Source: Deltaproteobacteria bacterium (GTDB taxonomy: Bacteria > Myxococcota_A > UBA796 > SXON01). Taken from it: a stretch of 64,000 nt of DNA. The position numbers and the translations under genes are program-made. The stretch is from the NCBI GenBank assembly GCA_947484175.1, contig CANKOI010000004.1:3407-67406 (forward strand). The letters are read 5' to 3'. The notes beneath the pieces were generated by a model. The model saw only the letters and a list, made by a program, of their open reading frames with translations, was not told the origin of the DNA and did not search any database. Below are positions 49,158 through 64,000 of the stretch, one piece after another. The stretch's first letter is position 1. Every line of letters starts with the position of its first letter.

Positions 49158-52100
49158 ATGCCGATCCGCCCGCCGAATCTGGACGACCGCCGCTACGAAG
49201 ACCTCCTTCGCGAAGCCCGCGCCCTGATCCCCCAATACACGCCGGAGTGGACCAACCTCTCCGATGCCGACCCCGGCATGACCCTCGTCCAGCTGTTCGC
49301 GTGGATGACCGAGATGGTCATCTTCCGGCTGAATCAGGTGCCGGACAAGACCTACATCCACTTCCTCAACTTCATCGGTGAGGAGCGGAAACCGGCCCGC
49401 CCGGCTGCGGCGCCGCTCACCCTGACCCTCCGGGGAGAAGGCGGCATCGATCTTCCTCCCTATGCCCGGTGCGCCACCCGCCAACGCGAAGACAGCACCG
49501 CAGTGGACTTCGTCACGGTCGACGGCTTGTCGGTGCACGGCGCCACGATCACCCGCGTGATGGCCGTGCGCGGGGGTCAACGTCCCGCCGTTCGCGAGAT
49601 CCCCTACACCTACCTGCGCGACAATCCGTCGGCGCTCCTCTTCGGCGGGGGCCGCGGTGTCGACGTCTTCGATCTCGATCCGGTGGATTACGGTCCCGAG
49701 GCGTACACTCCCGACCAGTTCCTGTACGTCAGTCACGAGGACCTGCGGCTCATGGACATTGAGGCCGACGGCGAGCGCCCGCTGGGTCGGCTCCGGCTGA
49801 GGCGCGGGGGCACTAGCGGCGACAACTTGAGCGTGGCCGCCTTCTTCCAGTGGGAGTACCCATCCGCCGAGGGCTGGTTGCCGGTGGCGATGGACTTGGA
49901 CCCGGAGGAGAGTCCCGGGTTGCCGGAAAACACGATCGTGACGGCGCTCCCGGGCATCCTCCCCCTAGACCACTTCGGCAACAACGCCGCCTTCGGGCTG
50001 CCCGAGCCCGTCGCGACCGCGAAGTGGTGGCTCCGCGGGCGGCTGGATTTTGAGCGTTGGCTGGCGGGCCGAATGCTTCAGGACCTCGAGATCACCTGGC
50101 GGGACGACCGCGGCGGCGAGGAGCGCTCGATCAACAACTGGGAAGTCCGAGCCACAGGCCGCACCTTGGAGTTCTTCCTCCAGGACGTGCCACCGATCCG
50201 GGGCGGCTGGGTGTTGCGATTCGCCCTCGTGGATCGCGGCGTACCTTCTGGGCGTACGAGCTACCTTCCTCGCTATCGCTGGTACTACCGAAGGGGCGAG
50301 GGCTGGGAGGAGGTTCCCAAGGAGAGGGTGCGTACGGACGGCACGGTGGTTCTCCTGACTGGCCCGCTCACCGACATGGCCACCGACGGCTACAACCTCC
50401 GCGCGGAGCGCATCGAGACGGTGTTCCTTCAGGGTTTCATCCCCGAACTGGAGCTAGATCTCACCTGGGTGCGTCCCATCGAGTTGGCCATGTTCTGCGG
50501 GGACGACCCCCGCCGACTCGAGCCGCTGTTGGTGGACGAAGGGCCGTGGAGCCCCTTCCAGCTCGCCACGATGATGCCGCCCACCATCGGGCGAAAGTGG
50601 TACGTGGGCAGCGACCTCTTCGAGAATCGGAAGCAGGAACCCGTGGTCGTCGAGCTGGACGTCGTGTTCGACATGAACGGTACGGCGATTCCCGAACCGA
50701 GTGAGCTCTACTTGCTGCAGCTCACCTACCGGGCCGAGGACAACTGGCGCGTGGTGTGGTCGGAGAACAAGATCTTCACCAGCTTCACCTTCGCAGACCT
50801 CGATGGCACCAAGGAGCTCGACAAGAAGGCCCGCCCCGTTGGGCCCCGCACCATCACCGTCCTGCTCGACCCAAAAACCCAGCTTAAGGGCCTGGCCCGG
50901 CACGACATCGACGGACGCGAGAGCACCTGGCTCCGCTTCGAGTTGGTGAAGTCCTCCCTCACCGGTCAGGACGAGAAGAAGGAGCAGCACCCAATCGTGC
51001 CGCGCATCCTCGCCGTCCGACTCGGAGTGCAGAACGGTGTGGGCGCCAAGAGCTACGACCAGCCGCTCCCGGGGCCCCGCATGGCCCAGGTCGACGATCG
51101 GGCCGAAAACCCCCGCCTGACCCGAGCGATCACCCGAGCCGTGGGGCGCCTCGGAGAGTTCTACCCCTTCTTCCCCTTTGTGGAGCTGAAGGACGAGAAC
51201 CAAGCCCTCTACCTCCAGTTCAGCAAGCCGCTCCCGGCTGGCCGGCGCCACGTGGTGCATGTTCGCACCCGAGGCGAGTCCTTCCTTCCTGAAGGGGTGG
51301 AGGTGCACTGGGAGATGTTGGAAGCTCAGGCCTTCGGTCGTCACGTGTGGCGCCGCCTGCACGGGCCCGGCGAGGGAGCGGCACGCCCCTACCAACTCAC
51401 GCGCACGGGAACCCTCGAGTTCCCCTTGCCCGACCCCCCCGAGGCGGGGCCGGACGGACTCTGGCTCCGTGCCCGCTTCGCCTTGCCGGTGGGCGCCACC
51501 CTCGACATCCTGCCGCAGATGGCGCCCATCACCCACGTGCTGCTGAACACGGTGGAGGTGGTCAACCTGATCACGGTGCGAACGGAACGTTTCTCGGGCT
51601 TGGGCGTGCCGAACCAGACCGTGCAGCTCCGAAACGCACCGGTGTTTCTCCACGACCTCGAGCACGAGCGCAGCCTCTTTGCCCGGCCCGAAACCTTTCC
51701 CGACATCGTGGTGTACGTGGAAGAGCCCGACGGCGCCGTGGAACCTTGGAGTCGGGTGCCCGACGGGGCGCTGTTGACCGCCAGCAAGGACGACCGCATC
51801 TTCGTGGTCGATGCCACGGAGGGCACGCTCACGTTCGGCAACGGCATCCGTGGAAGAATGCTGCCCGTGGGCTCCGCGAACGTGGTGGTGGACGTGTACC
51901 GAGCCGTTCCCGGTGCTCGCGGCAACGTGGCGGCGGGCGACATCAACGTGATGGAGGGGTACGCCGACTCGGTAAAGGCGGAGAACCTGCTGCCGGCCAG
52001 CGGGGGGCGCGATGCCGAATCGATCGACGAGATCATCCGCCGCGCGCCGAGCCTGCTCACCAGCCGCGACCGGGCCGTAACGCAGACCGACTTTGCGATC

Positions 52101-52673
52101 ATCGCTCAGGAGGCCAGCGGCGAAGTGGCGCGCGCAGCGTGCGACGGCCGGATGGGGCCCGACGGCAAGGTGGTGGTGGTGGTGCTGCCGCGCCGCCGGG
52201 ACGGGGAGTCGCTCCCCGACGCGCTGCTCGGCACCGGTCTACGGGACCACGTCCAAGGCTACCTGAAGCGGCGCTGTCTGATCAACGTCACGCCCGTGGT
52301 GCGACTGGCCAGCTTCATGCCGATCGACATCAGCGTGACGTTGCGGCTGCGCCCCAACGCAAACCTGCTGGCGGTGCGCGAGGCGGCCCAGCGGTGGGTA
52401 GAAGCGTTCCTCGACCCCTATGTGGGCGGCTTCGACGGCAGCGGGTGGCCCTTCAAAGGCACCGTGTACAGTCAGGACTTCGCCAGGATGGTAGCTGACA
52501 TCCCCGACGTTCGGCACGTCATCGAAGTCCAACTCTTCGACGTGTCGGGGGAGAAGCGGCAACGGGGCGCCCCGGGTTGGGAGGAAGGCGAAGGGGTGCG
52601 CGAGATCGTGCTCACCGAGGCCGACCTGCTCAACGTGCGCCGCGTCCGGGTGAGAACCGAGGACGCCGAATGA
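49158..52673 (+). CDS. Putative baseplate assembly protein (baseplate J-like, eCIS type)
   Basis: PPNLDDRRYEDL...PEWTN...DPG.TLVQLFAW, FGNGIRG..P, GGRDAES, RAVT..DF, G..G.GWPF. Confidence 0.92.
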   Translation: MPIRPPNLDDRRYEDLLREARALIPQYTPEWTNLSDADPGMTLVQLFAWMTEMVIFRLNQVPDKTYIHFLNFIGEERKPARPAAAPLTLTLRGEGGIDLPPYARCATRQREDSTAVDFVTVDGLSVHGATITRVMAVRGGQRPAVREIPYTYLRDNPSALLFGGGRGVDVFDLDPVDYGPEAYTPDQFLYVSHEDLRLMDIEADGERPLGRLRLRRGGTSGDNLSVAAFFQWEYPSAEGWLPVAMDLDPEESPGLPENTIVTALPGILPLDHFGNNAAFGLPEPVATAKWWLRGRLDFERWLAGRMLQDLEITWRDDRGGEERSINNWEVRATGRTLEFFLQDVPPIRGGWVLRFALVDRGVPSGRTSYLPRYRWYYRRGEGWEEVPKERVRTDGTVVLLTGPLTDMATDGYNLRAERIETVFLQGFIPELELDLTWVRPIELAMFCGDDPRRLEPLLVDEGPWSPFQLATMMPPTIGRKWYVGSDLFENRKQEPVVVELDVVFDMNGTAIPEPSELYLLQLTYRAEDNWRVVWSENKIFTSFTFADLDGTKELDKKARPVGPRTITVLLDPKTQLKGLARHDIDGRESTWLRFELVKSSLTGQDEKKEQHPIVPRILAVRLGVQNGVGAKSYDQPLPGPRMAQVDDRAENPRLTRAITRAVGRLGEFYPFFPFVELKDENQALYLQFSKPLPAGRRHVVHVRTRGESFLPEGVEVHWEMLEAQAFGRHVWRRLHGPGEGAARPYQLTRTGTLEFPLPDPPEAGPDGLWLRARFALPVGATLDILPQMAPITHVLLNTVEVVNLITVRTERFSGLGVPNQTVQLRNAPVFLHDLEHERSLFARPETFPDIVVYVEEPDGAVEPWSRVPDGALLTASKDDRIFVVDATEGTLTFGNGIRGRMLPVGSANVVVDVYRAVPGARGNVAAGDINVMEGYADSVKAENLLPASGGRDAESIDEIIRRAPSLLTSRDRAVTQTDFAIIAQEASGEVARAACDGRMGPDGKVVVVVLPRRRDGESLPDALLGTGLRDHVQGYLKRRCLINVTPVVRLASFMPIDISVTLRLRPNANLLAVREAAQRWVEAFLDPYVGGFDGSGWPFKGTVYSQDFARMVADIPDVRHVIEVQLFDVSGEKRQRGAPGWEEGEGVREIVLTEADLLNVRRVRVRTEDAE

Positions 52674-53758
52674 CCCTCGCGCTCGTGCGTCAGTCTGGCC
52701 CCCGCGGCAGCTCCGACTTCCGTTACCTCGAGGATGTCGTGCGGATCGGGTACCCCGTGCGCGAGGCCCAGACGTACCTGAACCGGCACCTCGGCAACCC
52801 GGTCGGGTATCGGCTCGTCGAAGCGTTGCGGGGCGAGCGGGTCGGCTGTGTGCGGTCCATCGAGGTGCAGACGGCAGCCGGCGGCGAGCCTCTCTTCGTG
52901 CGCTCCACACGGCGCCTTCCCGACGGTTCGCCCGCCAGCCACTACACGCCCGATGAGCTGGTGACGGTGAGCGCGGAGGTGGTGACGCCCGACGGTCGCC
53001 CGCCCGGCGGGCTGGGCGCGCGCGACCGGGTGGTGCTCCATGTGCCGGTGCGCGGGTACCTGCGCTTCCTGCCAGGGCTGTACCAAGGCGCCGTTCCTGC
53101 CCAACGCCGCGACATCGTGCGGGCGGACGAAGCCTCCGCGCGGAACTGGGGGGCCCCGGTGGCCGTGCACTCCACCGAGGTGCAGGCCTTCAACGCCGAG
53201 GCGCTCCGTCGGTTCCTCGCCATCTTCCAGCACGTGATGACGACCATCACCGACCGGATCGACGGCCTTCCGCAGCTCATCGACCCCATCGCCACCGATC
53301 CCCGCTTCTTGCCGTGGATCGCTAGCTGGGTGAGCTTTCCGCTCGACAGCTCCCTGCCGATCCACCAACAGCGGGAACTGGTACGGCGAGCGATCCGCCT
53401 GTACCGCACGCGCGGCACCGTGGCGGGCGTGGAGGAGATGATCCGGGTGCTCACGGCTGCGCCCGTCCGCGTGGCCGAGACCCGGCACCCCAATCCCTTC
53501 ACCCTTGGCCGCAGCACCCTCGCTGGGGGCCGAACCGTCGATGCCCGCTACCTGCGCGGGGAGCCCGCAGGGCACTTCGTAGCCGAACCCGGCCGGGCGG
53601 CCACGTCGTTCTTCGCCTTGGTGCTGGAGCCGGCCAACCAATTCAAGAAACGTTTCGGCGAGCGGGCGCCCGGCGTGCTCCGGCGCATCTCCCAGATCGT
53701 GTCCAGCGAAAAGCCCGGCCACGTGTCCTTCACCATCCTGTTTGACGAGGGTCGGTAG
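52670..53758 (+). CDS. Phage tail protein I-like (Tail_P2_I) baseplate wedge protein with N-terminal extension
   Basis: YLRFLPGLY, RFLAIF, DP...FLPWIASWV, LYRTRGTVAG, EKPGHV. Confidence 0.88.
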   Translation: MTLALVRQSGPRGSSDFRYLEDVVRIGYPVREAQTYLNRHLGNPVGYRLVEALRGERVGCVRSIEVQTAAGGEPLFVRSTRRLPDGSPASHYTPDELVTVSAEVVTPDGRPPGGLGARDRVVLHVPVRGYLRFLPGLYQGAVPAQRRDIVRADEASARNWGAPVAVHSTEVQAFNAEALRRFLAIFQHVMTTITDRIDGLPQLIDPIATDPRFLPWIASWVSFPLDSSLPIHQQRELVRRAIRLYRTRGTVAGVEEMIRVLTAAPVRVAETRHPNPFTLGRSTLAGGRTVDARYLRGEPAGHFVAEPGRAATSFFALVLEPANQFKKRFGERAPGVLRRISQIVSSEKPGHVSFTILFDEGR

Positions 53759-53760
53759 CC

Positions 53761-54702
53761 GTGCAGCCCAAGAACTTCTTCCAGCTCAGCCGCCTGCGCG
53801 CCTTCGAGGGCCTCTGCCTTACGGCCCGCGACCTCGAGGACGAACAATCCTACCACCGCCGCAACCTGCAGCGACACGTGCTCTACATGCACGGGCACGG
53901 CATCGTGCAGGGCCTCCAGGTGGAGATCGAACAGCGCAAGGACAAATACGTGGCCGTGATCCAGGGCGGCTACGGGGTGACCCGCATCGGTCAGGGCGTT
54001 CTGCTCGCGGACGCGGTGGCCGTTCCGCTGGAGGTGCCCCGTCAGGACGGCGAGTACATGCTGTGGCTCTTCCACGTTGAAGGCGCGGATGAGGCGGAGC
54101 TGCGGGCCATTTTCGACACGGCCGAGCAATCCGCGGCGAGGGTGAAAGAGTCCTGCGCGCCCCGCCTTCACGGAATCGACGAAGATCAGCCCGACGCGAT
54201 CGCGCTCACCCGCATCAACGTGCGCCTCGGTCGCATGGTGCAGGTCCTCTTGCCCGTGCCGCGCGCGGGGCGACAGGCCCGGGCGGCCGAGAGTTACCTC
54301 AAACCACGGGTTTCGGACTTCATCCGCCTGAACAAGAGCGTGGTGCAAAACCTCTTCCGTACCGCCCAGCTCTCAGAGCTCGACTTGGGCGCACTGGGGT
54401 TCTTCGGCTCCTTGGTGGCCAGCGAATTCCTGCTCATCGAAGAAGGTACCAGCGACCGCGTACTCTACCGCAGCGCGGGCTCCCTGATCGCCTACGCCCA
54501 CGACTTCTACAACCCGCTTCCCCGCTCGCTCGAACGGGTGGAAAAATTCAAGGAGTTCGTGCGCCGGGTGAACGCCGAGGTGCCCGGCGCCGATCAGGGC
54601 GACGAGATCTGGCTGCGCTGGTTCGACAAGTTTGAGCGCCTGCTGCAGCCGCTCACCAAGATCGCGGAAGAGCTCGAGAAGACGGTGGAAGCGCAACGAT
54701 AG
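53761..54702 (+). CDS. eCIS-associated protein (baseplate/tail-fibre attachment N-terminal domain)
   Basis: RAFEGLCLTARDLEDEQSYH...HGHGIVQGLQV...GYGVT..GQ motif, seen in genes following eCIS baseplates. Confidence 0.7.
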   Translation: MQPKNFFQLSRLRAFEGLCLTARDLEDEQSYHRRNLQRHVLYMHGHGIVQGLQVEIEQRKDKYVAVIQGGYGVTRIGQGVLLADAVAVPLEVPRQDGEYMLWLFHVEGADEAELRAIFDTAEQSAARVKESCAPRLHGIDEDQPDAIALTRINVRLGRMVQVLLPVPRAGRQARAAESYLKPRVSDFIRLNKSVVQNLFRTAQLSELDLGALGFFGSLVASEFLLIEEGTSDRVLYRSAGSLIAYAHDFYNPLPRSLERVEKFKEFVRRVNAEVPGADQGDEIWLRWFDKFERLLQPLTKIAEELEKTVEAQR

Positions 54703-54730: not shown

Positions 54731-55582
54731 CTACCCGTACCTGGCGCAGAGAGCCCGCGCCGCCGCGCCATATTCGGGATGCCGCGTGCTGTAGTGGAGT
54801 TGGGCTTCGAGGAGCCCGACAGGGTTGCCCGTGTCGAAGTGCGCACCCGAAAAGACGTGACCGTGCGCGAGCGGAAGGCGAGCCAAGGCGTCGGTGAGCT
54901 GGATTTCTCCCCCTGCACCGGGCGGCGTGGTGCGGAGGAGCTCGAAGATCGTTGGCGGGAGCACATAGCGGCCCACGATCGACAAGGTGCTGGGCGCATC
55001 GGCGGGCGCCGGCTTCTCAACCATTCGTTCGATGCGCATGCGGTCGGGGCGCACCATCGGTCCCGCACAGATGCCGTACCGGTTGGTGCGCTCCCGGGGC
55101 ACGTTCTTCAGCGCCACCACCGCCCCGCCCTCTTCCGCGTGGACCCGCAGCAGCTGACCCACCACCGGCTCCTCCGCATCGACGATGTCGTCGGCGAGGA
55201 TCACCACGAAATCCTCGTCACCCACGGCGTGCTCCGCACACAGCACCGCATGCCCGAGACCCCGCATGTGGTCCTGCCGCACGCAGACCACCCTCGCGAG
55301 CGACGCGACCCTACGCACTTCGCCCAGCAACGCCAGCTTGCCGGCCGCTTCAAGCGTGGCCTCCAACGCTGGAGCACGATCGAAGTAGTCCTCCACGGCA
55401 CCCTTGCCGCGAGAGGTGACCAAGACAACGTCGGTGATGCCCGCCGCCACCGCCTCGGCGATCACGTACTCCAAGCAGGGCCGGTCCACGATCGGCAACA
55501 ACTCCTTCGGCACCGCCTTGGTGAGCGGCAGAAAGCGCGTGCCCAGACCTGCCACCGGCAGCACCGCCCGGGTGACAGGCAC
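54731..55582 (-). CDS. galU: UTP--glucose-1-phosphate uridylyltransferase
   Basis: AVLPVAGLGTRFLPLTKAVPKELLP, GLGHAV, VEKP, GGEIQLTDA. Confidence 0.95.
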   Translation of the reverse strand: MPVTRAVLPVAGLGTRFLPLTKAVPKELLPIVDRPCLEYVIAEAVAAGITDVVLVTSRGKGAVEDYFDRAPALEATLEAAGKLALLGEVRRVASLARVVCVRQDHMRGLGHAVLCAEHAVGDEDFVVILADDIVDAEEPVVGQLLRVHAEEGGAVVALKNVPRERTNRYGICAGPMVRPDRMRIERMVEKPAPADAPSTLSIVGRYVLPPTIFELLRTTPPGAGGEIQLTDALARLPLAHGHVFSGAHFDTGNPVGLLEAQLHYSTRHPEYGAAARALCARYG

Positions 55583-55585
55583 CGG

Positions 55586-55951
55586 CTACATGTCCCGAGT
55601 GGAACGCTCGAGCTGCTCGAGTTCGGTCTTGCAGTCGATGCAGTGCGTGGCCACCGGACGGGCCATCAGGCGTTTCTCAGCGATCTCGTTGCCACAGCTC
55701 AGACAGGTGCCGTAGTCGCCCACGTCGAGCCGCACGATGGCTTCTTTGATCTTGTGGATGAGCACCCGCTCCCGATCGCGGATGCGCAGCTGGAAGTCGC
55801 GATTCGACTCCATCGAGGCGAGATCGATCGCGTCGGCGAGGTTTTCCTTTTCGACGGTAAGGTCGCCCAGCGTGGCGCCGGCCTCACTCAGCAGCGCCCG
55901 CAGGCGCTCGTTGAGGAGATTGCGGAAGAACTCGAGACGATCCGGCTCCAT
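55586..55951 (-). CDS. dksA: RNA polymerase-binding protein DksA
   Basis: DAIDLASME coiled-coil tip, RDRER, C4 zinc finger CLSC...CIDC. Confidence 0.92.
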   Translation of the reverse strand: MEPDRLEFFRNLLNERLRALLSEAGATLGDLTVEKENLADAIDLASMESNRDFQLRIRDRERVLIHKIKEAIVRLDVGDYGTCLSCGNEIAEKRLMARPVATHCIDCKTELEQLERSTRDM

Positions 55952-56032: not shown

Positions 56033-56926
56033 ATGCCACTCCGCAAGCTCCAGCCGCTCCTGATCGGTGCTTTGTTCGTCGCCGTCGTGTCGCCGGCCCA
56101 CGCCGACGAACGGAGTGGAGCGCGTTCGGCCGGTCGCGGAGGCGTGGGACTGGCGAACGGCAGCGACGTCGGGGACATCGCTCGCAATGTGGCTGCTGTC
56201 TCGCTGAGCGAACGCTACGATCTCGTGGCGGGGGGAGTTGCCGGGCCCGACGACACCTGGCTCGGGAGAATTTCGGCCGCCGACTCGCGCACCAGCGCCG
56301 TGACCCTCGGCGCTTCGTACAGCTACCGGGTGGACAACGTGGCGGCGCCTTTGAGCGCGCTGCCGGGTTGGGTGCTGGCCGACGACGAACTCACCAACAC
56401 CACCTCGCACCAGGGCGTGGCCGTCAGCATGGCCTACCCCTTCCTCGGCCGAAAGATGTCGGTGGCGGCCACCGGGCGCTACGACTGGCGCGACTCCGAG
56501 CAGGAGGGCGAGTCCGACGGATTCAATTTCGGGATCAGCGGCGCCGCCAAACCTTGGGAGCCCGTGACGGTGGCGGTGAGCGTGAACAATGCGCTCGACC
56601 TCGGCTACCCGGACACGGAGCGCACCGTGGACGTCGGCGCGAGGTGGGAGCCCGGCCCCTACCTCGGCCTCGAAGTCGAGCTCCGCACCGAGTGGATGGG
56701 CGACCCCTTCGAAGAGTCGCTGGCGGAGCACGCCGGCGCCGACGTGGGACTCACCGAGTGGCTCAGGCTGAGCGGGGGATGGCAACACGAGGACGGCCTG
56801 CATGTCGTGGGAGGCGGACTGAGCCTGATGAGCGATAAGGCCGACCTCGACTACTCGATCCAAGGGGAGCTCGACAGCGAGCCCACCCGGCTTTGGCACT
56901 CGTTGGATCTGCGGGTTCACTTCTAG
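56033..56926 (+). CDS. Outer-membrane beta-barrel-like protein
   Basis: Signal peptide AHA, RSAGRGG, amphipathic strands, C-terminal Phe (LRVHF). Confidence 0.7.
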   Translation: MPLRKLQPLLIGALFVAVVSPAHADERSGARSAGRGGVGLANGSDVGDIARNVAAVSLSERYDLVAGGVAGPDDTWLGRISAADSRTSAVTLGASYSYRVDNVAAPLSALPGWVLADDELTNTTSHQGVAVSMAYPFLGRKMSVAATGRYDWRDSEQEGESDGFNFGISGAAKPWEPVTVAVSVNNALDLGYPDTERTVDVGARWEPGPYLGLEVELRTEWMGDPFEESLAEHAGADVGLTEWLRLSGGWQHEDGLHVVGGGLSLMSDKADLDYSIQGELDSEPTRLWHSLDLRVHF

Positions 56927-56932
56927 GCCGCC

Positions 56933-57979
56933 TCACGAACGAAGAAAGAAGATCACCGCCGGCGCCAGCACCGTGAACACGCAGCCGAGCAGGTAGACCA
57001 GGTGAACGGGACGGACAGCTCCGGTCCGGAGCGCTGTCCACGTCGCAGCACGCGGGTGAGGGGTGCGGGTGAGGTCGCCCAGCGCGCGCGCGCCGTCATT
57101 GTCGAACAGGAAGGGCCACCCCGTGAACCAGGCCACGCCGATGCCAACGTGCACGAAGGCGCGGGGCAGGGCCACGCTCTCGGCGGACACCGCAGACGCT
57201 ACCACCGCCGCTACGGCCGCCACGAGCAGGCTCACGGCTGGGCCGGCGAGGGCCACGGCGGCGTGCTGGGCACGCGACCCCAAGTACATGTCGGTGGTGT
57301 CGACATACACCCCACGCAGCCCTACCGCCACGCCGCGCACCTTGCGGCCGAAACCGACGACCGCCACGGCATGCCCCAGCTCATGCAAGACGAGGTGGAC
57401 CACGAAGGCGAGGGCGAGGAGCGGCAGCCGGGTAGCGAGCGGCGTGGCATCCACGCGCTGGTCGGCCACTATCGCGTACGCCCCCATCCCCAAGATGCCG
57501 AGGGGCACCGGCGACTGGTACCAGCTCACAAAGGGGGACAACCCCTTCCAGACGAACGCGGCCACCGCATGCGCGCCCGTCCAAGTGAGCTCCCGCCTCA
57601 GCCACGCCACGTGCGCGAAACGGCGCCGCAGGAAGCCTGCAGGCTCCACCTCCACCAGCCCCGCCTCGCGGAGCGCCTGAATGAAGCCCGAAACCCGAGA
57701 AACCGGCAAGGAGCCAAAGGTGACGAAGTAGGAAGTGGCGATCTCCGCCACCGTCGCGCGCCCGTCGATCAGGCCCCAGAGGTGCATCTCCTCGGCCCCG
57801 AGCCGCAGGTACACCTTGCCATCGGCGCTGGTGAGCACCCAAGCGCCGTCCACCTCCGTCAGCGACGCGGGCGCCGGCCGAGGCCGCATCTGCAGCCACG
57901 TTTCGCCCGAGTCCAAGCGGCGGACCTCAAAACGGCCGTCCGCGCCGCGCACGACCAATTCGAGAGGTCCCGGCGGCAC
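56933..57979 (-). CDS. PqqD/RRE domain fused to M50 (site-2-like) membrane metallopeptidase
   Basis: N-terminal YLRLGAEEMHLWGLIDGRATVAEI...LREAGLV; HELGH, YVDTTD, ALAGP, PFLFDNDG. Confidence 0.85.
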   Translation of the reverse strand: MPPGPLELVVRGADGRFEVRRLDSGETWLQMRPRPAPASLTEVDGAWVLTSADGKVYLRLGAEEMHLWGLIDGRATVAEIATSYFVTFGSLPVSRVSGFIQALREAGLVEVEPAGFLRRRFAHVAWLRRELTWTGAHAVAAFVWKGLSPFVSWYQSPVPLGILGMGAYAIVADQRVDATPLATRLPLLALAFVVHLVLHELGHAVAVVGFGRKVRGVAVGLRGVYVDTTDMYLGSRAQHAAVALAGPAVSLLVAAVAAVVASAVSAESVALPRAFVHVGIGVAWFTGWPFLFDNDGARALGDLTRTPHPRAATWTALRTGAVRPVHLVYLLGCVFTVLAPAVIFFLRS

Positions 57980-57982
57980 GAA

Positions 57983-58216
57983 TCAGGCCAAGTACTCGCC
58001 GCGAGCAAGAAACTCCGCGTTGAACGCCGCCGAGAACGAGCGAACGCGCTCGGGATCGCCGGTGGCCGACTCGATCGCGGCAACAGTCTCCTCGTCGAGC
58101 TCGTAGCCCTCGGCGAGCAGCGTGCCGCGCACATCGGCCACAAGCGCCGAGCGGAATTCCGCGTCGATAAGCGCGCGGCCAACGATGGTCTGGAGAACAG
58201 AAGGGACAGCGGACAT
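57983..58216 (-). CDS. NHLP-clan (Os1348/Franean1_4349-like) RiPP precursor peptide, 77 aa
   Basis: MSAVPSVLQTIVGRALIDAEFRSALVADVRGTLLAEGYELDEE leader matches I.GRA..D.EFR..L..D......GY.L..E; GGAG SD; core ...FNAEFLARGEYLA. Confidence 0.8.
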   Translation of the reverse strand: MSAVPSVLQTIVGRALIDAEFRSALVADVRGTLLAEGYELDEETVAAIESATGDPERVRSFSAAFNAEFLARGEYLA

Positions 58217-58291
58217 CAGCACTCCGGGTTCACAAGGAAGGATCGGCACCCACTATCCCGAGCATAAGGGCTGCGGCCGTCAATTCGCGGA

Positions 58292-59197
58292 TCAGGACGC
58301 AGTGACCGCCGCCAGACGCACCAGCGACACCCGAATCGTCAGGGCTCGGAGTCGGGCCCCGCGCTCCTCAAGGAAGCGGTCGAACTCACGGAGGCGCAGC
58401 TCGGCTGCAGGTGCGCGACAGTCTTCGAGCGCGCGCTCCGCCTCCGCCAGCATGGTTTCGAGGAGTGGGGAAAAGAGCAGCGCCCGCCGCACCTCCCCCG
58501 CTAGGCCCGAAGGCCCGGCCAGAGCTCGCGCGGCAGAAAGCAGGTAGGTGTTGGCGCCGCTGGACAGGTCACGTTCCCACCCGAGTACGTCGTTGACGCA
58601 ACCGTAGGAGCGAGCCAGACCGTGCACCAGCGGCCGCACCGCGGCGGCTCCCGTCCAATCCCCGGAGGCCGACATCACCGCGTAGAGCGGGAGCTCCGCC
58701 AGCGCACACTTCCTCGCATGAGCTTCGAAGTCCGCCGCGCTGTATCCGTCCGTGCGAAGCAACTGCCGTCGTTCGGCCTCTGTCTGTTCCGAGAACTCCA
58801 CCCAAGCCCGGCGCGCCTCCTGCGCGAAGCGTCCTTCGGTGTGGCGGTGCCAGAGCGCCATGGCATCCCACAACAGGGCGTTGCCCACTAGGAGCATCGG
58901 CGGGTTTCCGCGTGTTCCGGGCTCGTCGATCACGTTGTCCTGAATGCGCACGTACGCGTACGCCAGCGCAGTGGCATCCAACACATCGGCCATCACCTCC
59001 GGGGCGACCGGCTGCGGCATCCACAACGGGAGGTGGAGGAGCGGCGCCGCGTCGGCCTGGGTGAAGTACCCGGGACCGGCCCAGGTGAGGAACGCCGCGC
59101 CCTGCTCGCGGAGATGCGGAGGCAGGGAGGCAACCCTCGTCTCTAGGCGACTGAACACCGCTTGCAACGCCGGCCCGTTCTCCTCGTACGTCTTCAC
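58292..59197 (-). CDS. Class I isoprenoid-synthase-fold enzyme (ComQ-like prenyltransferase candidate)
   Basis: First Asp-rich motif YVRIQDNVIDE, then ARK, and second motif CVNDVLGWERDL..G..TY. Confidence 0.75.
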   Translation of the reverse strand: MKTYEENGPALQAVFSRLETRVASLPPHLREQGAAFLTWAGPGYFTQADAAPLLHLPLWMPQPVAPEVMADVLDATALAYAYVRIQDNVIDEPGTRGNPPMLLVGNALLWDAMALWHRHTEGRFAQEARRAWVEFSEQTEAERRQLLRTDGYSAADFEAHARKCALAELPLYAVMSASGDWTGAAAVRPLVHGLARSYGCVNDVLGWERDLSSGANTYLLSAARALAGPSGLAGEVRRALLFSPLLETMLAEAERALEDCRAPAAELRLREFDRFLEERGARLRALTIRVSLVRLAAVTAS

Positions 59198-59206
59198 GGT
59201 GTCCCG

Positions 59207-60526
59207 CTAACGCGGGGCCCTGCCTTCGCCGGGCCGCACCACCGCCCAGATCGTGGGAGTGCCGCTCTTGCCCTTCACCTTGACCGGCGGCATGCGGGCG
59301 CAAGGGAACTCGGCCTCAACGGCCGCATGCACCTCGTCGCTGATCACCAAGGAACGGCCGAGGTCGCGGCAAAGGCCTTGCAACCTCGCGGCAAAGTTCA
59401 CGGTGTCGCCGATCACGGTGAACTCAATGCGCTCAGCGGTGCCGACGTTTCCGGCGATGACGTCGCCATAGGCGATGCCGATGCCGATACGCAGCCCCAG
59501 CTCCCCGCCCACACCGGCCGCATCCAACTCGCGGACCTTGTCAAGGATCGCCGCGGCAGATCGGACTGCGTCGCCACAGGCGTCAGGGAGCTGGCGAGGA
59601 ACACCAAACACGGCCATCAACCCATCGCCAAGGAACTTGTCGAGGGTGCCGCCGTGCGCGAAAACGAGCGGCACGATCGCGCCGAACACGGTGTTCAGAA
59701 AGTCCACCACCGCCTCGGGCCTCTCGGCCTCCGAGCGGCGTGTGAAGTCGCGGATGTCCACGAACATCACGGCGGCACGGCGGCGTCGGCCCCCCAGCCC
59801 CATCGCCTCCGGGTTGTCCGCCACGTACTGCGCCGTAGCGGCCGAGAGGTACTTCCGAAAGTGCTGCTGCTGGCGCTGGGCCTCCTGTTTCTGCAACGTT
59901 TCGGTGGCCGACTGCGTCCACTGCAGCCGAAGGAGTCGGCCGAGCCCGCCGTACACCAGCCCCAGCACGAACAAGAAGCCCACAATGGTGTACTGGTCAG
60001 GGAGCGACACCATCTCCTTCCCGTACACGGCGTCGTCGGACGGGACGACATCCCCGCGGTCGACGGCGAGCCGTAGGAGAAAGAGCCGTTGCGCGGCGGC
60101 AAGCGCCCCCGCGAGCACGCTCACGCCGAAGTTCCCACCGAGGGCCGCGAGGAACATCACCATCGGGTAGAGCGCCACGAGAAGCGGCGCCAACAGCATC
60201 TCGTAGGCGCCGCTATAGTTGAGGTAGCTGCCTGCCGCGAACGCAGTGACGAACGAAACGTCCACCACCGCGCTCACCCACTTCGACCAGCGTGGCGCCG
60301 CCCCGGCGCGAGTGCGAAAGAAGACAAACGCCGCCCACGCGGTGAAGACCGCAGTGGTCGCCGAGACGAACGTGAGATTCGCGCTGCTGTTGCTCTCCCA
60401 GTTGCCCGCGATCGTCAGCATGCCCAGCACGCAGAACACCAGCCGTAGCTGGGAGGCGATGTGTTCGAATCGGGCCGCGTCGGCCGCCACCAGCTCGACG
60501 ATACGCTCGGGGGCGGGGGGCTTCAT
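59207..60526 (-). CDS. Membrane-bound class III adenylate cyclase
   Basis: About 6 TM helices; FVDIRDFT, DKFLGDG, EFTVIGDTVNFAARLQ; all catalytic and ATP-specifying residues present. Confidence 0.93.
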   Translation of the reverse strand: MKPPAPERIVELVAADAARFEHIASQLRLVFCVLGMLTIAGNWESNSSANLTFVSATTAVFTAWAAFVFFRTRAGAAPRWSKWVSAVVDVSFVTAFAAGSYLNYSGAYEMLLAPLLVALYPMVMFLAALGGNFGVSVLAGALAAAQRLFLLRLAVDRGDVVPSDDAVYGKEMVSLPDQYTIVGFLFVLGLVYGGLGRLLRLQWTQSATETLQKQEAQRQQQHFRKYLSAATAQYVADNPEAMGLGGRRRRAAVMFVDIRDFTRRSEAERPEAVVDFLNTVFGAIVPLVFAHGGTLDKFLGDGLMAVFGVPRQLPDACGDAVRSAAAILDKVRELDAAGVGGELGLRIGIGIAYGDVIAGNVGTAERIEFTVIGDTVNFAARLQGLCRDLGRSLVISDEVHAAVEAEFPCARMPPVKVKGKSGTPTIWAVVRPGEGRAPR

Positions 60527-63500
60527 TCGGCCGATGGTACCGCACCGCGAATCTGGTTTGCCAGCGACGTGAATCCTGCCCCCTCGACCTCTGCGGCAAG
60601 GTCGAGCGCGCCGGGACCGTCCTGCTTCAGGCGGGTGAGGTGCCAACGGGCCACGTAGGCCGACTCCCGCTCGCCGAGGCGACTGGCGGTCGCCGCGGCC
60701 CGCTCCAAGTCGGCCACCGCATCGTCGCCCCGCAGGGCGCGCAGGTAGTGGAGGAACACCTCGTTCATCACGACGCCCCGCTCCCATCCGCAATCGCGCG
60801 CGAGGTCGCGGGACTGCTCGAAAGCCGCCCAAGCCCGCCCCACATCGTTGAGCCGCAGGAGCGCATCGCCAATGTTGTGGAGGTTGATGACCTCCCCGGG
60901 CCGGTAGCCCAGCCCGCGCCGCAGCTCCAGGGCCCGTCGGAATTCGGCAAGGGCCTCGGCGGGGCGCCCCTCCTCGAGCGATGCAATACCAAGGTTGTTG
61001 ATGATGCGCCCCATGAGCACGCGGTCGCCTACTCGCTCCGCGTGGGGGAGGGCGCGCTCCAAGAGCTCGCGGCCCGCGGCCGGGTCGCCCAGCCGAACCG
61101 CGTGGTTCGAGAGGCCAAGCAGCATCCTCGCCGCGAGGTCGCCTCGTTCGCCGGCAACGGCCAGCCCACGCTCGTAGGTGGCGCGGGCGTCGTCGACCTG
61201 ACCTTCGTCGAGGTCCAGAGCGCCGAGAACCTCCAAGCACTGAACGTGCAGCTCGAGGTCTCCGGTGCGCCGCGCGATCCCCGCGGCATCTTCCACGTTC
61301 GCACGGGCGAGTGCGAAGCGACCCTTGTTGGCGTACAGCTGGCCGAGGCCGAGCAGCGCCTGCGCCTCGGCAACGCGCGGCCCCGATTCTGCCGCGATGT
61401 CGAGCGCTATCGTGAGCATGCGCTCCGCCGTGGGGAGCCCGAGGAGGCGCGCCGTTTCGCCCGCGGCGACGTGAAGCTGCGCCTCGACCTGCGGGTCGCG
61501 ATCGGCTCGCGGGGCGGCATCGAGCCAGGCGATCCCGCGTAGGAAGCAGTCGAGACCGCGCTCGAAGAACTGGCTCGACCGGTGGTCTGCGCCGGCCCGG
61601 TAGATGCTGCGGATCGCCTCGCGGGGGCGCCCACCGTCGTGACAGTGGTGCGCAAACGACTCCACGACCGTGTCCAGGCGATCGCCGTACACGCGCTCCA
61701 TCCCACCGCTGACCATCCGGTGGTACTCGCGGCGCTGCACACCGAGGATTCCCCGGTTCACACACTCCCACACCAGCACCGATACGAAGCTGTAGGCGGT
61801 GTCAGGCGAGCGGCCGTCGGGCGCAACCAGCCCGGCCCGTACCAGCTCCCCGACGAGCGCGAGCGGCTCGTCGGCGCCGATGGCTTCCCCGAGGAGGACT
61901 GGCGAGAAGCCGAGCCCGATGATGGCGGCCACTTGGAGTGCCCCCTTGGCGAGGGGATCCAGGGCATCCACCCGCGACGCGATGAGCCCGACGAGCGTGT
62001 CGGGGAGCTGCGGACCGGCCTCGGGGTCCTTCAGCCGGGCCTGCTTGTCGTCGAACCAGACTCGGCCCGCCTGGCGAAGCGCCTTCAGCACCTCCTCGAG
62101 GTAGAGCGGGTTCCCCTCGGCCGTGCGCCGCACCAATCGGGCGAGGTCGGGGCCGATCGAATCCGCCCCGAGCACATCGGCCGCGAGCGCCTCCACCTGC
62201 TCGATGGTGAGCGTGCCGAGCTGCACCATTTCCATGCGCGCGGCCAGCAAGGGGTTGAATTCACCTCGCCAGCTGGCGATGAGCAACACGGGCTCGCCGT
62301 CGGAGGCGTCGAGGAGCTGAGAGAAGAGCTGGGCTTCGAAGGCGTCGAGGTATTGCACGTCCTCAAGCATCACGATCGTCGGACGGTCGCGCGCGAGCCC
62401 CCGCACCAGCTTCACCATCGCCGCGTCGATAGCATCTCGGGCCGGAACCGCCTTCTGGCCGAGCTCGAGCCTGAAGAGCGTTGCGATCACGGCGACGTCG
62501 GTTTCGTCGAGGTGGAGGGCCGTGAGACGTTTTAGTCGCTCGCGCACATCCGTGGCCGCGGTGTCCACTTCGATGCCGAGGACGTCGCTGACCAGATCCC
62601 GAAAGGGCGCCAGAGGCCGGTCGGACCCGAAGGGGAGCGCCCGCCCGTGGAAGATGGGGATGTTGCGACGCACGGCGAGCCCCCGAAGCTCGCGGAAAAA
62701 ACGACTCTTCCCAGCCCCCGCCTCGCCCACCACACCGATGCGCGCGCCCCGGCCTTCCCGAAGGTTGGCAAGTGCATCCCGGACCACCTCCAGTTCGTTT
62801 CCGCGCCGCAACCAGCGCCCCTGAAGCTCCCGCCCGCCACGGCGCCGACCTTCCCCAAGCAAGAACGTCGCGCGGGTGGCGCGGGTGCCCTTGCGGCGCA
62901 GCTCCGGTCCCCGGTCGAAGGGGAACCGGTCGCCGGCCAGAGCGGCCACCCGGTCGCTCACGAGGGTGGTGCCGGGGTCTGCGGCGTAGGCAAGGCGCAC
63001 GCAGGTCTTGAGGGTGTCGCCGCGAGCGGTGAATCGGTAGTGCCGACCCTGCCGGCGACCCACGTTGAGGTCGCCCGAATGGACACCAATGCTGAAGTCC
63101 GTGGGCAGACCGCGGCGGCGCAGCCGCCCTGCAAGTCGGTGGAACTCCCGAGCGCAGGCGAGCGCGCGGTCGAGGTCGTCGCCGTGGGCGCGCGGCAACC
63201 CGAAAAACACGAACAGCGTGTCGTCGTCGAAACGTTCCGCCACGCCGCCCATGTTGTCGACCAGCTTCCGCACCATACGGAGCATCTTGAAGTGCACACG
63301 ACCGACCTCTTCCGTCTCGGCGTGCGCCGAGAACTCCGTGAGTCCGTTCACCTCCACCACCATCACCACCACGCTCTTCCGTTCACCCTGATGCACGATG
63401 AGGTGCCGCGGCGCTCGCTCCTCAGGCCCTGTGAGCGACTCGTTGGTGGAGTGGCTCGACCCTTCGGGCTCCGGAGCGCCCCCCGTGTGCATGGCCTGCA

Positions 63501-64000
63501 GGTCTTCGGCCAAGAGGTCGATGGCGCTGGTCGCGGAGGCCGCGGACACCTCGTCGCCCCACGCACGACGCATCAGCTCTGCCAGCCGCCGTTCGTCGGC
63601 CCGCCAACCCTTGGCGAACGCGAGGGCACGCAGCTCTTCCTCGAAAGCGCCGGCGTCCTGGAACCGATCGGCCGGGTCGCGGGCGAGCGCTTTCGTTAGG
63701 ATCGCCCAGAGCTCGTCGGGCACACCTGCGTGGAGCGGCCGCACGTCGGGGATCACGCATTCGATCACCTGCCGGAGCTTTTCATCCGCGTCGTCGTTAG
63801 CAAAAAGTCGTTTTCCCGCCAACATCTCGTAGAGGACCACGGCGAGTGAGAACAGGTCGCTCCGCCTATCAACAGGCAGGCCGCGGGCCTGCTCCGGAGA
63901 CATGTACGCAAACTTACCCCCACCCGGGCGCCCGACCTGTGAGGGATCGGACTCGCTCAAGCTCTCGCCTACGAGTCGTGCGATGCCGAAGTCGACGAGC
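60523..64000 (-). CDS. Ser/Thr kinase + degenerate cyclase + STAND/AAA ATPase + TPR protein (5' end outside window)
   Basis: LVDFGIARL at the window edge, YMSPEQ, DLFSL; Walker A GEAGAGKS, Walker B MLEDVQ, GNPLYLEE; C-terminal TPRs. Confidence 0.92.
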   Translation of the reverse strand, partial: LVDFGIARLVGESLSESDPSQVGRPGGGKFAYMSPEQARGLPVDRRSDLFSLAVVLYEMLAGKRLFANDDADEKLRQVIECVIPDVRPLHAGVPDELWAILTKALARDPADRFQDAGAFEEELRALAFAKGWRADERRLAELMRRAWGDEVSAASATSAIDLLAEDLQAMHTGGAPEPEGSSHSTNESLTGPEERAPRHLIVHQGERKSVVVMVVEVNGLTEFSAHAETEEVGRVHFKMLRMVRKLVDNMGGVAERFDDDTLFVFFGLPRAHGDDLDRALACAREFHRLAGRLRRRGLPTDFSIGVHSGDLNVGRRQGRHYRFTARGDTLKTCVRLAYAADPGTTLVSDRVAALAGDRFPFDRGPELRRKGTRATRATFLLGEGRRRGGRELQGRWLRRGNELEVVRDALANLREGRGARIGVVGEAGAGKSRFFRELRGLAVRRNIPIFHGRALPFGSDRPLAPFRDLVSDVLGIEVDTAATDVRERLKRLTALHLDETDVAVIATLFRLELGQKAVPARDAIDAAMVKLVRGLARDRPTIVMLEDVQYLDAFEAQLFSQLLDASDGEPVLLIASWRGEFNPLLAARMEMVQLGTLTIEQVEALAADVLGADSIGPDLARLVRRTAEGNPLYLEEVLKALRQAGRVWFDDKQARLKDPEAGPQLPDTLVGLIASRVDALDPLAKGALQVAAIIGLGFSPVLLGEAIGADEPLALVGELVRAGLVAPDGRSPDTAYSFVSVLVWECVNRGILGVQRREYHRMVSGGMERVYGDRLDTVVESFAHHCHDGGRPREAIRSIYRAGADHRSSQFFERGLDCFLRGIAWLDAAPRADRDPQVEAQLHVAAGETARLLGLPTAERMLTIALDIAAESGPRVAEAQALLGLGQLYANKGRFALARANVEDAAGIARRTGDLELHVQCLEVLGALDLDEGQVDDARATYERGLAVAGERGDLAARMLLGLSNHAVRLGDPAAGRELLERALPHAERVGDRVLMGRIINNLGIASLEEGRPAEALAEFRRALELRRGLGYRPGEVINLHNIGDALLRLNDVGRAWAAFEQSRDLARDCGWERGVVMNEVFLHYLRALRGDDAVADLERAAATASRLGERESAYVARWHLTRLKQDGPGALDLAAEVEGAGFTSLANQIRGAVPSAE

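Follow-up and report, generated by a model that had tools for sequence, protein, structure and literature searches.

The window examined here, a stretch of 64,000 nucleotides from contig CANKOI010000004.1 of a Deltaproteobacteria bacterium (GenBank assembly GCA_947484175.1), carries on its minus strand a small gene for a 77-amino acid peptide, beside the gene of a 301-amino acid enzyme with the predicted fold of the trans-isoprenyl pyrophosphate synthases (trans-IPPS). The peptide gene is real and conserved. With somewhat better than even confidence, its product is read here as the "X" peptide, or precursor, in a lipopeptide system that resembles ComQX/PalQX and belongs to uncultured freshwater Myxococcota, one where the enzyme of IPPS fold would prenylate the tail of the peptide and a putative M50-type protease with a RiPP recognition element (RRE; RiPP, a peptide made by the ribosome and modified after translation) would remove the leader. 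Peptide prenylation on an acceptor other than tryptophan is likely. The acceptor is not Trp, and Tyr75 is a reasonable candidate for it in the clade of the window, but the orthologous sequences indicate that Tyr75 cannot be the general acceptor of the whole family. A Trp-less peptide of 77 amino acids is unremarkable alone, and it matters only because of the enzyme adjoining it.

The precursor gene

The open reading frame (ORF) starts with the ATG at 58216, stops with the TGA at 57985-57983 and is translated to MSAVPSVLQTIVGRALIDAEFRSALVADVRGTLLAEGYELDEETVAAIESATGDPERVRSFSAAFNAEFLARGEYLA (77 amino acids), the C-terminus being ...AEFLARGEYLA, that is, ...SFSAAFNAEFLARGEYLA. A count of its residues finds Trp, Cys and His absent and tyrosine twice, as Tyr38 and Tyr75, the second of which (codon 57992-57994) stands at position -3, third from the C-terminus, exactly as the original prediction had stated. 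The peptide reaches 49.6 bits against NF038399, the Os1348 family of the nitrile hydratase-like leader peptide (NHLP) clan, which is above the curated cut-off of 40, with the model spanning residues 8-66, and 46.5 bits against PF14407 (Frankia_peptide), just under the cut-off of 48.

Related loci were taken from species-representative genomes (13 loci), from contigs of metagenomes (27 loci, with many duplicates) and from a sample of 401 genomes of the phylum, 11 of which matched; the close operons among them that also carry the M50 gene gave 13 distinct close precursors. GC-rich genomes yield many spurious ORFs, and 98 ORFs of at least 40 amino acids are found in 14 kb here, so a frame opened by chance has to be considered; this explanation is effectively refuted by the NF038399 match above cut-off, by the 13 distinct close orthologues of equal length at the same position, by a G + C content far higher at third than at second codon positions (GC3 0.79 and GC2 0.48, the GC3 of the orthologues being 0.86-0.97), by a median ratio of nonsynonymous to synonymous polymorphism (pN/pS) of 0.42 across pairs among ten orthologues, by a Shine-Dalgarno site and by contigs from RNA libraries that cover the gene. 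These contigs come from three studies (four metatranscriptome runs), agree with the window at every position of 57805-58195 (100% identity) and so speak for the expression on which the original prediction depended, DNA carry-over being possible. In the four runs the enzyme gene (58279-59400) and the 3' portion of the M50 gene have no contig over them, and, these being contigs, this is uninformative on expression there.

A longer frame of 88 amino acids opens with a GTG (57983-58249), and judged from the sequences it is unlikely to mark the true start. The ATG at 58216 is preferred because all 13 distinct close orthologues start at the equivalent Met (12 of them begin with MS and one, locus L046, with MP) and because a GGAG lies five nucleotides upstream. 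In the AlphaFold2 (AF2) model the precursor is helical over residues 7-70 and then coil. A helical leader followed by a floppy tail of seven residues, as predicted here, is what one would expect of a precursor whose short C-terminal core is modified under the guidance of its leader.

The adjacent enzyme

The 301-amino acid enzyme has no hydrophobic segment in a hydropathy scan. An alignment of 25 members of its family served both for the AF2 model and for the counts of invariant residues. The model (predicted local distance difference test, pLDDT, 92.8) is all-helical, and VIA-align, which is independent of Foldseek, places it closest to a geranylgeranyl pyrophosphate synthase (GGPPS; 3n3d, Z 22.4, root-mean-square deviation 2.7 A over 273 residues), while two non-elongating prenyltransferases, Ord1 and MoeN5, score Z 19.1 and 18.9, respectively. 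The top matches in Foldseek are trans-IPPS enzymes as well (TM ~0.7). The IPPS fold that had been proposed for this neighbour is thus borne out by the structure comparison and by the motifs described below, and the all-helical model with its IPPS matches does not belong with the ABBA-fold enzymes of the cyanobactins.

D87, D91, E92, K163, N202, D203 and D210 are invariant in all 25 members, and they lie for the most part in two invariant blocks, RIQ-D87-N-V-I-D91-E92-P (RIQDNVIDEP) and Y198-G199-x-x-N202-D203-V-x-G206-x-x-R-D210 (NDVxGxxRD). The first block holds a variant form of the FARM (first aspartate-rich motif), D87-N-V-I-D91-E92 (DNxxDE, 25/25), for which the relatives L045 and L047-L051 have DDxxDE. 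The second holds a degenerate counterpart of the SARM (second aspartate-rich motif), namely the pseudo-SARM N202-D203-V-x-G206 (NDxxG), again in 25 of 25. In a profile alignment with the hexaprenyl pyrophosphate synthase 3aqb_B, NDVxG falls on the SARM DDxxD and K163 on a conserved Lys; the profile of the family finds PDB sequences with a best E value of 1.1 (hexaprenyl pyrophosphate synthase), so that this alignment served for the register of the motifs only and not for homology.

In a preprint on the enzyme StheQ, the ComQ family is defined by a FARM together with a pseudo-SARM NDxxx; the FARM of StheQ is D85-E86-x-x-D89, the metal in its structure is bound only by the FARM, and the substitution N215D costs 98% of the activity (10.64898/2026.08.29.745113). 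The combination of FARM, ND-type pseudo-SARM and trans-IPPS fold makes the enzyme of the window ComQ-like in fold and motif logic, though it stands outside every curated sequence family.

A complex of enzyme and peptide, predicted from the enzyme alignment and the peptide alignment, obtained a score of 0.45 against 0.00 for the best control. Among solved complexes 116 of 157 reach this mark, and among mismatched pairs 2 of 215; at 0.60 or below, only 18 of the 157 and both mismatches do. The result is graded weak; at least 58% of the contacts are the same between the runs, and the pLDDT of the partner is at least 71.

The tail of the precursor and candidate prenyl acceptors

The original prediction had proposed Tyr75 as a possible site of prenylation and had suggested aligning homologous precursors in search of a conserved C-terminal aromatic residue. 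Among the 13 distinct close precursors, 12 end in R-[GA]-[ED]-Y-x-x, with Tyr at -3 invariant, and to this extent the proposal stands. It does not extend to the family, since one close orthologue lacks Tyr altogether and the tails of more distant members vary. Prenylation of Tyr75 by the IPPS-fold enzyme, on oxygen or on carbon, would make this the first Tyr-directed peptide prenyltransferase of the IPPS fold. The residue lies within the predicted disordered tail, at the position that Trp has in ComX168; Tyr is known to accept a prenyl group in the cyanobactins (PMC13290415), and in the enzyme the Gln tied to indole recognition is replaced by Gly199, beside the invariant Tyr198. On the other side, V-20, F-17, F-13, L-8 and R-6 are as invariant as Tyr in these twelve precursors, which makes six such positions within the last 22 residues, and conservation thus gives Tyr no special standing.

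The strongest contrary case is L046, which belongs to the same taxonomic family as the genome of the window and has a complete cyclase-enzyme-peptide-M50 operon (identities to the window of 45% for the cyclase, 44% for the enzyme, 57% for the peptide and 36% for the M50 protein, whose motif is HELAH). Of the 38 family-invariant residues its enzyme retains 33, with those of the motifs all among them, but the peptide terminates in ...ESFLARDAAA and is free of Tyr, Trp, Cys and His throughout. Furthermore, the pseudo-SARM regions of L022, with a Tyr tail, and L046, without Tyr, are nearly identical. Beside more distant enzymes, 14 further distinct precursors were collected, of which 13 have no Tyr in the last six residues, and the other, L024, has it at -4. 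Their tails include ...FADRKAAS (L048, L049), ...VGDKRAAT (L050), ...GRPSVMAT (L011, the same locus as L045) and ...DDGDATPG (L047), and nine follow the pattern ...FG[LIVE][KHES][VPY][QE][MSA][GV]. None of the 27 distinct precursors has a Trp in the last 10 residues, L008 having one at -12. Read from these alignments, Trp is not used in the family at large, and Tyr is a clade feature whose loss can leave the remaining system intact. Tyr75 as the acceptor in this clade is held to be rather improbable.

A second explanation is that prenylation falls on a feature shared more widely, either the guanidine of Arg72 (-6), by N-prenylation, or the C-terminal carboxylate or terminus. Arg follows F/L-L-x in all 13 close orthologues, the Tyr-less L046 included, and a basic residue stands four to seven positions from the end in L048 and L049 (DRKAAS), L050 (DKRAAT) and L011 (GRPSVMAT); most of the distant clade has Lys or His in that region of the tail, and almost every member ends in small residues. 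Moreover, a review of April 2026 lists N-prenylation of Arg among known peptide chemistries, and PalQ requires a free terminus. Against this, no basic residue is found there in L033 and L036 (both FGEEVQMV), L041 (FGISVQMG) or L047, and neither reaction is known from any IPPS-fold enzyme. An acceptor of this kind, suggested by alignments only, is regarded as unlikely.

The operon and its conservation

The order of genes on the minus strand is a giant kinase gene, a cyclase gene, the 301-amino acid enzyme, the peptide and the putative M50-type protease (Table 1), and the operon is bounded upstream, past the kinase giant, by a divergent Lon-like gene and downstream by a convergent gene.

Table 1. 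Features of the peptide locus (positions in the window)
Feature	Position	Strand	Basis
Precursor gene, 77 aa, NHLP clan (Os1348/Frankia_peptide type)	57983..58216	minus	NF038399 and PF14407 scores, orthologues, codon bias
Unstructured C-terminal tail ARGEYLA (residues 71-77), presumed modified part	57986..58006	minus	AF2: coil after residue 70, mean pLDDT 53
Shine-Dalgarno-like GGAG	58222..58225	minus	5 nt upstream of ATG, read from sequence
Soluble trans-IPPS-fold enzyme, 301 aa, putative ComQ/PalQ-like peptide prenyltransferase	58292..59197	minus	AF2 fold, invariant motifs
Putative intramembrane HExxH (M50-type) metalloprotease, 348 aa, with N-terminal PqqD/RRE-like domain	56933..57979	minus	HELGH, weak family matches
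Membrane class III adenylate/guanylate cyclase, 442 aa	59207..60535	minus	PF00211 E 9.3e-22
Ser/Thr kinase - cyclase - NTPase/TPR giant	60523..64000 (start beyond the window)	minus	TIGR03903 TOMM_kin_cyc 199 bits, cut-off 705

The protease gene starts 3 nucleotides past the stop of the precursor gene. Its product has HELGH at residue 199 inside a hydrophobic stretch of the hydropathy scan and matches PF02163 (E 1.1e-5, 25.3 bits, cut-off 27.2) and NF041824 daptide_HExxH (E 2.2e-14, 53.4 bits, cut-off 300), in both cases below the cut-off, and 12 of 13 homologues match PqqD at E<=0.1 (best 8.4e-5). That the peptide would be cut by an M50 protease rather than at a double-Gly site had been suggested beforehand, and it agrees with the putative HELGH protease gene downstream and with the precursor, in which a direct reading finds no Gly-Gly anywhere. 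The C39 or double-Gly route was likewise rejected, no transporter or peptidase gene for it having been seen over the span from the kinase gene to the convergent gene downstream. The cyclase has about 5-6 hydrophobic segments within its first 200 amino acids. A scan of 56700-59400 for promoters and terminators gave no promoter-like site and two terminator-like sites where 1.6 are expected, which is uninformative.

Synteny was counted by tblastn of the window proteins against 40 related loci. In 30 of these the cyclase is found upstream of the enzyme, the other 10 having at most 230 nucleotides of upstream sequence, and it is present as well in L042, L045 and L046 of the phylum sample; none was found within the 1.5-kb flanks of the remote relatives L047-L052. 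The M50 gene occurs in 17 of the 40 loci, every one from the close clade, and in the distant clade a convergent Ser/Thr kinase gene follows the peptide gene. An NHLP-like peptide gene is found near the enzyme gene in every locus with enough downstream DNA, mostly directly downstream and 0.8-1.3 kb away in L003, L004 and L047 (about 800 nucleotides in L047), and this neighbourhood is kept down to enzyme identities of 27-35% (L048-L050). As to the spacing, L002 has about 3.6 kb between cyclase and enzyme, and L003 and L004 have about 1.3 kb, apparently with a gene on the opposite strand, between enzyme and peptide. The precursor of L011 (L011:5986-6396, equal to L045) is 136 amino acids long, with a Lys/Arg/Ala-rich, histone H1-like extension of about 65 residues before the NHLP-like domain.

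These data also bear on the possibility that the enzyme makes or tailors a free isoprenoid, as a small-molecule signal or a lipid, with the NHLP-like protein as its partner or regulator and not its substrate. The IPPS fold mostly serves small-molecule chemistry; NF038399 covers so much of the peptide that only a very short "core" is left; no residue of the tail is universal; and Os1348 itself, a small protein that forms dimers, is not proven to be modified (PMC7726476). Opposed to it are the SARM, which positions isopentenyl pyrophosphate in chain-elongating enzymes and is degenerate (NDxxG) throughout the family, as it is in the peptide-modifying ComQ family, the translational coupling of a putative RRE/M50 protease of RiPP type to the peptide gene, the strict synteny of peptide and enzyme over deep divergence and the complex prediction, which lends weak support to binding of the peptide by the enzyme. 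A free isoprenoid product is considered doubtful, and prenylation of the peptide is preferred.

In three loci of the distant clade a further gene after the peptide gene (L013:6413-7396, L014:6349-7275 and L031:4425-5408) encodes a protein of 308-327 amino acids that weakly resembles class II terpene cyclases or alpha-alpha-toroids (SQHop_cyclase_C, E 1e-4 to 5e-4, under the cut-off; PDB 8j5z, E 3.9e-4). By analogy with ChrPC and NctPC, it hints that a peptide-bound prenyl chain may be cyclised in these loci.

Elsewhere in the window, past the convergent gene, are genes of a DksA/TraR-type zinc-finger protein (55586-55951, minus) and a nucleotidyl transferase (54731-55582, minus), which are unrelated to the operon. 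A contractile-tail-like set on the plus strand (49158-54702), including a 1171-amino acid Baseplate_J protein (PF04865, E 9.5e-14), Tail_P2_I (PF09684, E 1.8e-12) and a 313-amino acid ORF without a family, is probably part of a cluster for a phage-tail-like or extracellular contractile injection system.

The enzyme superfamily

A HMMER scan of 1.84 billion representative proteins with the enzyme family gave 667 proteins that reach E<=1e-3, of which 265 also reach E<=1e-10 and 33 even E<=1e-30. A Pfam scan (E<=0.001) covered 35 of the 150 matches listed, and 27 of these 35 had no Pfam family, one touched PF00348, two touched Terpene_syn_C_2 and five had other families, among them two geranylgeranyl-reductase-like FAD domains (P0073 and P0082), one squalene-hopene-cyclase/prenyltransferase toroid (P0106) and one SnoaL domain. 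Such fusions of remote enzyme relatives to FAD, toroid or SnoaL domains (P0073, P0082, P0106 and P0174) are Rosetta-stone hints that the superfamily handles and tailors prenyl chains. A look-alike search of the Atlas returned only clusters named "class 1 isoprenoid biosynthesis enzyme" or hypothetical. Two further relatives, L051 (G242:C59) and L052 (G202:C25), are proteins of about 670-825 amino acids with an N-terminal IPPS-like domain (RIQDDLVDEG ... QLTNDLLGGARD), and the C-terminal part of these fusions has a CxxxCxxC motif and looks by eye like radical SAM.

Relationships to known systems

The closest known system is PalP-PalX-PalQ, followed by ComQXPA. PalQ of Paenibacillus alvei is a prenyltransferase of the isoprenoid synthase superfamily, its substrate PalX is of the NHLP type with an 8-residue core, and a sensor kinase is encoded in the neighbourhood (PMC10853753). 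The window operon shares with it the NHLP-type precursor with a short C-terminal core, the all-alpha enzyme of trans-IDS-like kind (IDS, isoprenyl diphosphate synthase) without a true SARM and the membrane sensor encoded alongside (PMC10853753). However, the core of PalX, DNVRRFFW, ends in a Trp that PalQ strictly needs (PMC10853753), whereas the tail in the window has none; the sensor of PalPXQ is a histidine kinase and the sensor-like neighbour here an adenylate cyclase; and the window operon has a putative dedicated RRE/M50 protease and an enzyme that does not match known families at the level of sequence.

ComQXPA of Bacillus subtilis and StheQ-StheX of Sphaerobacter likewise combine an IPPS fold, a FARM that binds Mg2+ and the prenyl diphosphate, and a pseudo-SARM NDxxx (10.64898/2026.08.29.745113), all of which are predicted for the window enzyme. 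In these systems the acceptor lies a few residues from the C-terminus and the product is a signal (10.64898/2026.08.29.745113), as may also hold for the window. The acceptor is always Trp, at -3 in ComX168 and at -2 in StheX, unlike in the Trp-less window peptide, and the hosts are Firmicutes or Chloroflexi instead of Myxococcota. ECOD curators place the leaders of ComX, Frankia_peptide, Nif11 and NHase-alpha in one homologous group. In StheQ, Gln212 stands one turn before N215 (10.64898/2026.08.29.745113), where the window enzyme has Gly199, and the April 2026 review ties a Gln one turn before the SARM to recognition of the acceptor indole. An argument that Gln replaced by Gly means an acceptor other than Trp is weakened by the remote relatives L048-L051, in which the Gln before the SARM is kept, yet the peptides have no Trp.

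ChrPC and NctPC resemble the family in joining a trans-IDS-like prenyltransferase acting on a ribosomal peptide to a part like class II terpene cyclases (compare P0106 and L013, L014 and L031), but they modify Trp, and the operon of the window has no cyclase-like toroid gene of its own. The cyanobactin enzymes of the PagF/PirF type (ABBA fold) use Tyr of a ribosomal peptide as the prenyl acceptor, which is the chemistry proposed for the window peptide (PMC13290415); their Tyr O-prenyltransferases differ in using short donors and having no NHLP leader (PMC13290415). The Os1348 cluster of Pseudomonas sp. Os17 has a small protein of the same NF038399 family with a HExxH peptidase nearby (PMC7726476), but its partners are a GNAT acetyltransferase and a SagB-type dehydrogenase instead of an IPPS-like enzyme, and its reported function is linked to antibiotic activity (PMC7726476).

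Several points weigh against the peptide prenylation that is favoured here. Every characterised trans-IDS-like peptide prenyltransferase needs Trp according to the April 2026 review, and replacement of Trp abolished the activity of PalQ; no single tail residue is conserved throughout the whole precursor family. The enzyme matches nothing in Pfam or NCBIfam at E<=0.1, PF00348 included, its FARM is DNxxD instead of DDxxD, and Gly199, at position 3 before N202 where ComQ-type enzymes carry Gln, is invariant in 25 of 25 members. The RNA-library contigs may stem from carried-over DNA. The complex prediction, which had been suggested as a check on Tyr75, is weakly favourable to the pairing of enzyme and peptide, and its interface contacts are not reported, leaving none by which to place a tail residue.

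Searches of the accessible literature found no trans-IDS-like peptide prenyltransferase with an acceptor other than Trp and no report of the operon, so that an earlier description is possible.

Proposed pathway and its significance

The following account of how the peptide would be prenylated, in what order the steps would occur and what part the product would play in signalling is our inference. The helical NHLP-type leader of about 70 amino acids probably docks onto the adjacent soluble trans-IPPS-fold enzyme, which would bind a prenyl diphosphate through the FARM-like DNxxDE, Mg2+ and Lys163 and transfer the prenyl group to the floppy seven-residue tail (ARGEYLA). Removal of the leader would follow at the membrane, by the PqqD-like/M50 intramembrane protease encoded downstream. 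Since a membrane adenylate cyclase precedes the module almost without exception, the end product is probably a lipidated peptide that acts as a signal. The fuller proposal, that this is the first trans-IDS-like (ComQ/PalQ-type) family with an acceptor other than Trp (Tyr for the clade of the window, Arg or the C-terminus more generally), whose lipopeptide is freed by M50 and sensed via the multi-pass membrane adenylate cyclase, is tentative and less likely than not.

If true, a conserved family whose substrates never offer Trp would widen the chemistry of trans-IDS-like peptide prenyltransferases, and it would be useful for biocatalytic lipidation of peptides because of the longer-chain donors typical of the IPPS fold. 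The Tyr-containing peptide of the window and the Tyr-less peptide of L046 form a defined pair for comparison. In addition, that a membrane adenylate cyclase constantly accompanies the module suggests that one class of cyclase membrane anchors may have its ligand here and that Myxococcota may have a quorum-sensing-like circuit, which, if true, would be a Gram-negative, cAMP-wired counterpart of the ComQXP pheromone circuit of Bacillus.

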